From Promethearchaeota archaeon (lineage in GTDB: Archaea; Asgardarchaeota; Lokiarchaeia; Sigyniarchaeales; SOKP01): a DNA stretch of 45,954 bases. The translations under genes were made by a program, and so were the position numbers. Shown here in pieces: positions 17,853 through 19,580 of this stretch. The stretch covers positions 1 to 45,954 of the forward strand of contig JABXKD010000023.1 of assembly GCA_013375475.1 (NCBI GenBank), read 5' to 3'. How positions within the stretch are numbered: position 1 is the stretch's first letter; each line of letters begins with the position of its first letter. The notes below the pieces were generated by a model. The model searched no databases. It worked only from the letters and a program-made list of their open reading frames with translations, and had not been told where the DNA came from.

Positions 17853-18764
17853 TTGATTATAATTTCAGAGCAAAATACAATTAAAATTCAGTTAAAAGAT
17901 ACTCGTGATAAAATCCCTACTGATACGATAGGGATAGACATTGGTCAGAGTCTTACGAAGATTGCTTATTCGATAGGGAACGAGATTATACTTACGATGA
18001 ACCCAACAAGCTCTGACTTTAGTGAAATAAACGAATTTATAGAACTCAATAAATATCGATATAATAAGATTAACTTTACTGGAGGAAAAGCTTTTGTTCA
18101 ATACAAAAAATATTCTAATGAATTCGAAACAAACCTAATCAACGAATTTGATGCAAATATAGGGGGCGTAGAATTTCTGTATGAATACAACAAAAGTAAG
18201 CCTTTACCTCCCTCAATTATAGTTACCTTAGGAACTGGAACATCTATAATATTGAAAACGGATGGTATTACACATTTAGGAGGTTCTGCAATGGGAGGGG
18301 GCTTCTTCATGGGATTAATCAGATTAATTTTTCAAGAATCCATTGCCGATTATTCAGAAGCGATTAACTATGCTAGTAAGGGAAATAGATATCAAGTCGA
18401 TTTAAAAGTAGGTGATATCTATAATATTGAAGATAATAGAGTAGATAAATTATTTAGAGCGTTTACAGCAGCAGCATTAGGTAAGATTAATAAAAACAAC
18501 GATGTTAATACTGCTAAAAAGGAAGATATTATCTTATCACTCATTGGGAGCATTGGAGAAAATATCGGAACAATTGCTACTCTAATGGCAGAGAATCACG
18601 AAGTAAAGAATATCATTTTTTGTGGAGGTTTTTTAATTGGAAATAAACCATTAAAACAAACGCTGTCGCTACTATGTAAATACAAGAGATTAAAACCGAT
18701 GTTTTTAGACAATTCAGTGTTTGCTGGAGCAATTGGTGCTCTTGAATTTAACACTAACAGGTAA
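17853..18764 (+). CDS. Type II pantothenate kinase (CoaW/eukaryotic PanK 'fumble' family)
   Basis: GIDIG.SLTKI, TGGKA, NEFDA, LGTGTSI, GGSAMGGGFFMGL, GNR..VDLKVGDIY, GAIGA. Confidence 0.85.
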   Translation: MIIISEQNTIKIQLKDTRDKIPTDTIGIDIGQSLTKIAYSIGNEIILTMNPTSSDFSEINEFIELNKYRYNKINFTGGKAFVQYKKYSNEFETNLINEFDANIGGVEFLYEYNKSKPLPPSIIVTLGTGTSIILKTDGITHLGGSAMGGGFFMGLIRLIFQESIADYSEAINYASKGNRYQVDLKVGDIYNIEDNRVDKLFRAFTAAALGKINKNNDVNTAKKEDIILSLIGSIGENIGTIATLMAENHEVKNIIFCGGFLIGNKPLKQTLSLLCKYKRLKPMFLDNSVFAGAIGALEFNTNR

Positions 18765-18787
18765 ATATTTCAGAATAAAATAAAAGC

Positions 18788-18860
18788 GTGCCCATGGGAG
18801 ATATCTATTCATTGAAATTTAGTTGTGAAACTACTCTCATAGATACACTATAATGGGCAC
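18788..18860 (-). ncRNA. Candidate H/ACA-type pseudouridylation guide sRNA (k-turn hairpin) predicted to target 23S rRNA helix 69 U1911 (E. coli numbering)
   Basis: GUGCCCA-[UUAUAGU]-GUAUCUAU-GA-GAG-UAGUU(UCAC)AACUA-AAU-UUC-AAU-GA-AUAGAUAU-[CUCCC]A-UGGGCAC; pocket pairs with GGGAG-UA-ACUAUAA; TATAAAAA at 18882-18889 upstream; U-rich tract downstream. Confidence 0.7.
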
Positions 18861-18932
18861 AAAGATTGTAGGTAACAATAATTTTTATAGTTTTGAGTTA
18901 AAATATTAAAAATTAGAATGAAATAAAGCATA

Positions 18933-19580
18933 TTAAATAGTTTCAGAATGTCTTCTTAACATATCAGCATTTGTCTTACCCATTTTAATTGCTAATTCGG
19001 CAATAATTGCATCTAAATACACAAAAGCTGCGATCTCGAACATCGTTCCTTCGGGAGTTAGAATAGCAGTATCATCGTGAAGATCTACTTTATCTCTTTT
19101 AGATCGACCCTTTAATTTTATTGTAATGTCCCCAACTCTCCCAATTATAGTTTCAGGGTGAGATGTAATAGAAATTATTCCAAATGGTTTCGCTGTGTTC
19201 ACATAATTTTTTAAAAGACTTACAACGATGGAAGTTGTACCTGATCCTGAAAGAACTATCAAGATATCATCATTTGAGAGAGACGGTATAGAACCAAGGT
19301 TGGTAACCATATAAACGTCTGCACCAAGATGAACCAACCTTGTAGCAAAACACTGTAGAATGAAAGCTGAACGGCCACTTGCTAGTAGAAAAAATTTGCG
19401 CTTCTTAATTAATCCATCGTAAACCATGTCTATGAATTTTTGGGTGTGTTCGAAATGCTTAGGTTTACTAAGGTGTTCCATGTTATCTTGGAGATTTTGC
19501 AGGATAACATCCATTGATTGGAACAAAATCTGTCTTTCTTTTCCATTTAATCTATGTTCATTATTAACTTTATGAGCCAT
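18933..19580 (-). CDS. 6-phospho-3-hexuloisomerase-like SIS-domain protein
   Basis: SGRS, FATRLVHLG, SGSGTT, TPEGTMFE, RHSE; PHI/HxlB family pattern. Confidence 0.8.
   Translation of the reverse strand: MAHKVNNEHRLNGKERQILFQSMDVILQNLQDNMEHLSKPKHFEHTQKFIDMVYDGLIKKRKFFLLASGRSAFILQCFATRLVHLGADVYMVTNLGSIPSLSNDDILIVLSGSGTTSIVVSLLKNYVNTAKPFGIISITSHPETIIGRVGDITIKLKGRSKRDKVDLHDDTAILTPEGTMFEIAAFVYLDAIIAELAIKMGKTNADMLRRHSETI

Follow-up and report, generated by a model that had tools for sequence, protein, structure and literature searches.

Canonical single-hairpin guide small RNAs (sRNAs) of the archaeal box H/ACA type, exemplified by Pab91 and Pf9 of Pyrococcus, are built from a lower stem, an internal pocket, an upper stem, and a kink-turn (K-turn) on the 3' strand (PMC2377435 and PMC4652768; sources are cited here by PubMed Central number). 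Older descriptions place the K-turn 5 to 6 bp above the pocket (PMC2377435; PMC7991803). In the unified archaeal "10/x/y" model of Toffano-Nioche et al., the count starts at the pocket-closing pair, ends at the second G.A pair, and comes to 10 stacked layers, as in 14 of 15 productive folds (PMC4652768), and the distance from the closing pair to the ANA box is 14 to 15 nucleotides (nt) (PMC2377435; PMC4652768). Here, we describe a hairpin of this kind at positions 18788..18860 of contig JABXKD010000023.1 from a Promethearchaeota archaeon (assembly GCA_013375475.1); the whole stretch that was analyzed, 45,954 nt long, is called the window. Searches of full texts, supplements aside, turned up no paper on H/ACA guide RNAs from Asgard archaea.

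The hairpin shares with Pab91 and Pf9 the lower stem, the pocket, the upper stem, and the K-turn on the 3' strand, as well as a 10-layer GA stem, a bipartite guide that leaves the target uridine and the next nucleotide (UN) unpaired, and, in most relatives, ACA at 14 nt. It differs in that GCU rather than ANA stands at 13 nt, in its lower stem of 7 bp versus 7 to 9 bp, and in its Asgard lineage. With a probability of roughly 0.8, we read the region as the gene of a box H/ACA-type guide sRNA of Lokiarchaeia (Promethearchaeia), a single hairpin transcribed independently, that would direct Cbf5 to U1911 in helix 69 of 23S ribosomal RNA (rRNA); its transcription, its assembly into a ribonucleoprotein (RNP), the resulting pseudouridine, and activity without an ACA box are predicted. 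Judged by sequence, it is best described as an ordinary archaeal guide whose ACA tail decayed in one lineage, the ANA box being the sole defining feature that it lacks.

All coordinates of the RNA are on the minus strand, which is assigned because the G.U pairs and the K-turn exist on that strand only. The 73-nt hairpin, which scores 105.5 bits against a covariance model, runs GUGCCCA / UUAUAGU / GUAUCUAU / GA / GAG / UAGUU-UCAC-AACUA / AAU / UUC / AAU / GA / AUAGAUAU / CUCCCA / UGGGCAC. Its lower stem joins GUGCCCA (18854..18860) to UGGGCAC (18788..18794), and all seven of these pairs covary. The pocket is formed by the 5' guide element UUAUAGU (18847..18853) and the 3' guide element CUCCCA (18795..18800), of which CUCCC occupies 18796-18800 and the final A position 18795. 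Above it, the upper stem pairs GUAUCUAU (18839..18846) with AUAGAUAU (18801..18808) in eight layers that begin with a G.U pair, and compensatory changes are found in six of the eight pairs. The K-turn follows, with a non-bulged strand (18834..18838) made of G18838 (position 2n), A18837 (1n), and the C-stem strand GAG, and a bulged strand (18809..18816) made of the C-stem strand UUC, the bulge AAU (18813-18811), G18810 (1b), and A18809 (2b); within the C-stem, G18836 and A18835 pair with U18815 and C18814. An apical hairpin, UAGUU-UCAC-AACUA (18820..18833), has compensatory changes in all five of its pairs and closes the molecule.

Because older descriptions give 5 to 6 bp, the 8-bp upper stem seemed too long; the RNA fits the unified model because eight upper-stem layers and two G.A pairs make 10 layers, and the same eight columns recur in the family alignment. 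The minimum free energy of the fold is -24.9 kcal/mol, versus -12.5 +/- 2.5 kcal/mol in 200 dinucleotide shuffles, none of which folds as well (z -4.98). The first-pass annotation, which was made from the letters of the window alone, had placed every one of these elements correctly on the minus strand and had also noticed that the ACA box is missing, GCU lying directly past the lower stem in this copy. Its view of the RNA as a K-turn-bearing guide of H/ACA type agrees with the structure, the conservation of the K-turn, and the covariation; the covariance-model analysis that it proposed bore out conservation of both pocket and K-turn.

Conservation was assessed at two depths. A BLAST search of the intergenic region against 41 related genomes returned 12 loci covering the guide RNA, and at the most distant of these the alignment is limited to query positions 73-145, which is exactly the RNA. 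By this comparison, the guide RNA is a conserved island of its intergenic region. Two covariance models were then available, R1 built from 10 close homologues and R2 from 71 sequences. Of all cells in the alignment of 71 sequences (66 distinct rows), 94.4% are paired under the proposed structure, versus 34 to 53% when the 3' partners are slid by one to three columns. Changes on both sides occur in 19 of the 22 base pairs among the 71 homologues, and none of 500 shuffles attains any of five measures. The alignment was fitted to the model structure, which favours that structure; the raw MAFFT alignment already has the same compensations. The fold z score, the conserved island, and the strong covariation together make the hairpin more than a chance structure.

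The single-stranded elements are at least as constant. UAUAGU is present in the pocket of every printed row and CUCC in nearly all, and both stems flanking the large internal loop, the 7-bp lower and the 8-bp upper one, covary. At the sequence level, the K-turn with its tandem sheared G.A pairs is conserved at G1b, A2b, A1n, and the C=G pair at -1: A1n and the next G appear in all rows except one badly aligned row, the C=G pair beside the bulge is invariant (66/66), and the bulged-strand motif C-N-A-U-G-A is near-invariant. Position 2n varies among G, A, and U, and the pair adjoining the sheared G.A pairs (3b.3n) is non-Watson-Crick in 24 of 66 sequences, a kind of pairing that is common at this K-turn position. 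The CAAUGA-type bulge presumably resembles that of Pf9. The apical hairpin varies in length, with short loops in its place in many relatives. A separate observation concerns the basal upper-stem pair that closes the pocket (18846/18801; column pair 22:80), where 62 of 66 distinct sequences have G.U and no covariation occurs. This pattern suggests a sequence-specific role beside the target uridine rather than plain pairing. When the register with this G.U pair opened was tried, it gave only weak, G.U-rich alternative targets and was rejected.

The target was identified in related genomes. Helix 69 reads CGGGAG-UA-ACUAUAA-CUCUCUUAAGG in the archaeal 23S rRNA of two congeners (G016 and G008) and of two genomes of the same order (G032, in two copies, and G038), the target stretch in these 23S rRNAs being CGGGAGUAACUAUAACUCUC. 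CUCCC pairs with GGGAG (G1906-G1910) and UUAUAGU with ACUAUAA (A1913-A1919), which amounts to 5 + 7 bp, or 12 Watson-Crick pairs and no G.U pair, with U-A left unpaired between the two arms, as a bipartite guide requires of its uridine and the next nucleotide. The first-pass annotation had predicted just this 5 + 7 pairing around an unpaired U1911-A, and the match to congeneric and same-order 23S rRNA is exact. We take the target to be U1911 in Escherichia coli numbering, by alignment with the E. coli-type GGCCG-U-A-ACUAUAA of a contaminant described below; G016 has the equivalent uridine at 2138, and G008 at 2167. No site other than helix 69 reached 8 contiguous pairs when the 23S and 16S rRNA of the two congeners, together with the 16S rRNA of the genome itself, were scanned. 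When the pocket strands were shuffled with their composition preserved, 9 of 2,000 shuffles reached 12 pairs anywhere in the 23S and 16S rRNA of one congener.

For the comparison with the host's own 23S rRNA, which had also been proposed, congeneric and same-order genomes stood in: the assembly offers only bacterial large-subunit (LSU) rRNA, and the exact pairing is with helix 69 of those other genomes. That LSU gene lies on contig C263 (locus L001, 16.9 kb) in a bacterial 16S-tRNA-tRNA-23S-5S operon and scores 2,707 bits on the bacterial model versus 1,829 on the archaeal one. We rejected it as the host target, since its bacterial-model score marks it as a binning contaminant and its helix 69, GGCCGUAACUAUAA, is not the host's. 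As a further observation, the 23S rRNAs of the two congeners (L022 and L023) are 3,334 to 3,368 nt long versus 2,987 model positions and therefore contain sizeable insertions. Such insertions would fit the rRNA expansion segments reported for Asgard archaea.

The genome encodes candidate proteins for such an RNP. Cbf5 (341 amino acids [aa]) scores 428 bits against a cut-off of 238, contains DKCLD, TruB, and PUA domains, and aligns over residues 12-336 with the Pyrococcus furiosus Cbf5 of the H/ACA RNP structure 2hvy. Its PUA domain, singled out earlier as worth inspection, is intact and shows nothing unusual at the domain level. Nop10 scores above its cut-off (55.6 bits), as does L7Ae, two proteins of whose family score 82 and 49 bits; a Gar1-like open reading frame (ORF) of 85 aa reaches 25.2 bits, below the cut-off of 29.3. 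In the proposed mechanism, L7Ae would bind the K-turn, and Cbf5-Nop10-Gar1 the lower stem along with the pocket. Both strands of the pocket would pair with helix 69 (CUCCC with GGGAG and UUAUAGU with ACUAUAA), and U1911-A1912, kept out of pairing, would lie at the foot of the 10-layer GA stem, where Cbf5 would then isomerize U1911 to pseudouridine.

Searches with the covariance models placed the guide in most sampled genomes of its family. R1 found a single match in 106 of 151 genomes of the order, the window's own genome included; without it, the matches within the family came to 105 of 131 sampled genomes, spread over nine genera and mostly in single copy, and three other families gave no match (0/14, 0/1, and 0/4 genomes). 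R2 matched 24 of 25 genomes of the same family and gave two weak matches among 125 other genomes of the phylum. A scan for the conserved motif pattern in one genome per prokaryotic species returned at least 119 stretches, 85 of which have a lower stem of at least six pairs; at least one of these 85 is a chance bacterial match (L158). Of the 80 records listed, most bear the title Promethearchaeota archaeon or Promethearchaeia archaeon, and a few are labelled Hod-, Hermod-, Thor-, or Odinarchaeota; about a quarter are bacterial or otherwise non-Asgard by title, and these come almost entirely from the 34 stretches that lack a lower stem. Because these titles are mostly Promethearchaeota or Promethearchaeia, the lineage is Asgard of the Loki type, in line with the assignment proposed from the sequence at the outset.

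With a looser pattern, homologues were found in all three genomes of one genus in a second family of the order, one of them a single-contig genome; two other genera, each represented by one genome, gave none. The lower stem of the homologues is a different one, 9 bp long (AGCCAAGAG/CUCUUGGCU), and they have a K-turn and an eight-layer upper stem that starts with G.U in two of the three. They share the same UUAUAGU, which in one is extended by an extra G that would pair with C1920; their 3' arm is short (CUC), and their tails read ACA, ACU, and UCU. Their presence implies that the guide is older than the split of the two families, and the box is again variable. Two observations on distribution stand apart. 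Locus L115, from another family of the phylum (G199), has at 1501-1565 a weak covariance-model match of 27 bits in which the same pocket strands, UAUAGU and UCUCCC, sit on an unlike scaffold with a GGA end; possibly, a further Asgard family has a distant helix 69 guide here. Genome G047 has two copies of the SIS-guide locus on different contigs (L037 and L116), both with an ACU tail, and this is probably the result of two strains having been binned together. The covariance model could be used to annotate this RNA in several hundred metagenome-assembled genomes of Lokiarchaeia.

What sets the window's copy apart is its 3' end. Positions 18785..18787 are GCU where relatives have the ACA box; GCU (18787-18785) is followed by UUUAUUUUAUU and runs into UUUUAUUUU to 18777. 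Most relatives have a 7-nt 3' pocket strand and a 7-nt stem strand, or 14 nt, and then ACA. A tally of the tail triplets in the 71 sequences gave ACA 44, GCU 10, ACU 8, AAA 4, AUU 2, AUA 1, and 2 others that are poorly aligned, so that ANA (ACA, AAA, or AUA) is present in 49 of 71, mostly at 14 nt. These tails were placed on a maximum-likelihood tree of the adjacent SIS protein, which had 47 rows, was midpoint-rooted for drawing only, left out rows with a tblastn match of less than 190 residues, and included 5 rows without a box call by regular expression. The 18 GCU/ACU rows fall together, without exception, on a single branch within the genus of the window (100/100 support); one more ACU (G075) and a pair of AUU tails (G058 and G087) fall elsewhere. 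Given this placement, ACA is the ancestral state and was lost once in the ACU/GCU clade, where the former first box position is now drifting. Inside the branch, this position alternates between A and G, with at least three changes for GCT and at least four for ACT. The sequences suggest that one AC unit may have been dropped from CACACAC. Members of the clade have CUCCCA where others have CUCCAAA, which is 1 nt shorter and adds one target pair; as a speculation, the 3' arm, thereby strengthened from 4 to 5 bp, may compensate for weaker anchoring by Cbf5. An ACA read inside the last stem pairs (GGGC-ACA-C) was rejected, as it fits the ACU variants only and would leave about 12 nt between pocket and box.

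Several observations count against the interpretation of the RNA as a working H/ACA guide. GCU follows after 13 nt (6 + 7), where an ANA box would be expected 14 to 15 nt from the closing pair, and a spacing of 13 nt is non-productive in Pyrococcus (PMC2377435). ACA is required for the Pf9 guide (Baker 2005, as cited in PMC7075261). The 3' arm is short, being 5 bp here, 4 in most relatives, and 3 in the second family. The assembly has an archaeal 16S rRNA on contig C222 and no archaeal 23S rRNA, and the bacterial LSU helix 69 (GGCCG) pairs with the 3' arm at only three of five positions. Two descriptor scans with an rRNA-target filter recovered this RNA but found no further H/ACA guide in the same genome, the other candidates inspected being a tRNA and unconvincing hairpins, mostly in apparent coding sequence. 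Finally, expression data comprised 22 runs, of which three RNA-labelled ones contained 0.04 to 0.07 of the sequence words; one overlapping metatranscriptome contig (209 nt, depth 2), which is 90 to 95% alike and so comes from a relative, spans 18796-18919. Because it covers the promoter region too, this contig shows neither a discrete sRNA nor its ends.

Some of these points would suit a decaying guide that, after the loss of ACA, no longer assembles with Cbf5 in this clade and is heading for loss, leaving the U1911 equivalent unmodified. In favor of this, ACA is absent, the spacing is 13 nt, and the first box position toggles between A and G as an unconstrained site would (the changes counted above for GCT and ACT); in Majumder's gel shifts, mutation of ACA abolished Cbf5 binding (PMC7075261). 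Nevertheless, the pocket, K-turn, lower stem, and promoter are intact in 18 of 18 clade members, while the intergenic flanks diverge much faster than the RNA. Moreover, in a sample of 10 sequences from the ACA-less clade (9 distinct), three pairs have compensatory changes, and the pocket and K-turn are invariant; such changes within the clade argue for continued selection. ACA is also experimentally dispensable for typical single-hairpin guides: when it was changed to UGU or deleted, single stem-loop guides still made pseudouridine in vivo in Haloferax and in vitro, as long as UN stayed unpaired and the spacing did not exceed 17 (PMC7075261). We therefore regard decay as unlikely. The guide-target pair here is "typical" by its sequence, with an unpaired UN and short spacing, and for this reason the guide most likely still works in the ACA-less clade.

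The preferred reading, a helix 69 guide that outlived its box, leads to a broader proposal that we advance tentatively, at a little less than even odds: ACA may be dispensable in vivo for a lower-stem single-hairpin guide in this Asgard order, and ANA would have been lost several times independently under purifying selection (in the 18-genome clade; as ACU in G075; as AUU in G058 and G087; and in the second family as ACU in G025 and UCU in G028). The clade-specific loss is a natural experiment on the in vivo need for the PUA-ACA anchor of Cbf5, which so far has been addressed only by mutagenesis.

The locus bears on how the RNA is made. The guide lies between the stop codons of two convergent ORFs, a minus-strand SIS-domain protein of 215 aa that ends at 18933 and a plus-strand Fumble/pantothenate-kinase-like protein of 303 aa that ends at 18764, and it begins 72 nt past the SIS stop codon. 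Upstream, a promoter-like element (18882..18894, minus strand) comprises AAAA at 18894-18891 (-34 to -31), which is similar to a B recognition element (BRE), and TATAAAAA at 18889-18882 (-29 to -22). The 71 upstream regions share this positional signal, being A-rich at -34 to -32, T at -29, and A/T at -28 to -23; T occurs at -1 in 64 of 71 and G at +1 in 66 of 71. The layout matches a putative archaeal BRE/TATA promoter from which transcription would begin with the lower stem's first base, and G18860 is the likely transcription start. Downstream, a U-rich tract, UUUUAUUUUAUU (18774..18785), is a putative archaeal terminator, and relatives have a T-rich run within about 6 nt past the box. The independent transcription proposed at first is thus upheld as far as a conserved promoter-like element and an inversion of the SIS gene in some relatives go, and transcription itself is predicted from these features. 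Two observations concern the flanks. In genus g17 (L068-L071, L075, and L094), a conserved G-rich element, AAAGGGAGCC / GGGGGC, rather than a T-tract lies 3' of the guide; a second hairpin, or some other structured element, may be present there. Between the SIS stop and the promoter (about 18891-18931, minus strand), an AT-rich stretch of 40 nt has copies of 81 to 96% similarity on contig C178 and in six related genomes, independently of the guide; it could be a repeat or merely low-complexity similarity.

The position 72 nt past the SIS stop between convergent genes, the synteny with SIS in 48 of the 49 loci that have flanks, and the U-tract could also describe a mere terminator-like or 3' untranslated region (UTR) hairpin, or some other RNA bound by L7Ae (a C/D guide, for example, or a regulatory K-turn), without any guide function. 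This we consider very improbable. The single-stranded pocket is the most conserved part and the stems covary, the bipartite 12-bp match falls exactly on a functionally central rRNA site, and a scan for bacterial-style terminators found 0 sites. In relatives L043 and L108, the SIS gene is inverted, so the RNA there cannot be an SIS 3' UTR. A box C/D sRNA was ruled out as well, since neither a C box (RUGAUGA) nor a D box (CUGA) occurs in 18785-18860 of the minus strand and Rfam C/D matches are at chance level (13 to 14 bits, E at least 1.6, versus gathering scores of 40 to 50). No Rfam family of any kind reached its gathering score, and by E value there were only chance-level matches (E at least 1.6). 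The three-hairpin sRNA of the HgcG/Pab40 type (RF00064) has no match in the window or genome at E up to 1, and the RNA here is a single hairpin.

Least probable of all is a guide RNA whose true substrate is a tRNA, an mRNA, or another rRNA site and whose match to helix 69 is a coincidence. In its favor, archaeal guides can be versatile (one Sulfolobus guide serves eight sites; PMC11077068), and our target scan was confined to 23S and 16S rRNA. Against it, helix 69 is the sole match of at least 8 bp there, and neither pocket strand varies from genus to genus, which is what an unchanging rRNA target would lead one to expect.

Returning to the helix 69 guide, comparison with described systems shows where it stands. 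Atypical H/ACA-like RNAs of Pyrobaculum and Sulfolobus are alike in having no canonical ACA while keeping the K-turn and the 10-layer GA stem. However, this type by definition lacks a lower stem (PMC11077068; PMC4652768), whereas the RNA described here has one of 7 bp in which 7 of 7 pairs covary, and membership in the atypical type is ruled out on that ground. The first-pass annotation had favored a guide of atypical type and pointed to the ACA-less guides of Pyrobaculum; the covarying lower stem and the ancestral ACA (44 of 71) place the RNA in an otherwise canonical family instead. If the broader proposal is true, an ACA-less guide would be a naturally occurring intermediate that links canonical H/ACA guides with the crenarchaeal guides that have neither stem nor box.

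Helix 69 itself is modified in other organisms. Bacterial RluD makes pseudouridine 1911 in helix 69, as well as 1915 and 1917, and is a protein-only enzyme that uses no guide RNA. The present guide would thus act at the same helix 69 position as RluD by a different, RNA-guided route, and it yields a concrete prediction: an RNA-guided pseudouridine at a position modified in bacteria by a protein alone. Asgard archaea, in which the guide occurs, are the closest prokaryotic relatives of eukaryotes.

Among archaea, positions 1940 and 1942 are modified in helix 69 of Haloferax volcanii, which we take to be the equivalents of E. coli 1915 and 1917. There, stem-loop 2 of sR-h45 (Psi1940/1942; PMC7075261), like sR148 of Sulfolobus islandicus (U2060/U2066; PMC11077068), serves Cbf5-dependent guided pseudouridylation in this helix. 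The targets differ, in that sR148 addresses the equivalents of E. coli 1917 and 1923 (the comparative table lists Psi1917 for E. coli and Psi2260/2266 for yeast; PMC11077068) and the guide described here would address the 1911 equivalent. The sites named for Haloferax are 1940, 1942, and 2605 (PMC7075261), and the 1911 equivalent is not among the sites named for Haloferax or Sulfolobus in these papers. The scaffolds differ too: sR148 has no lower stem (PMC11077068), whereas the guide here does, and stem-loop 2 of sR-h45 needs ACA on account of its atypical UNUN target configuration (PMC7075261), whereas the guide here presents the typical UN.

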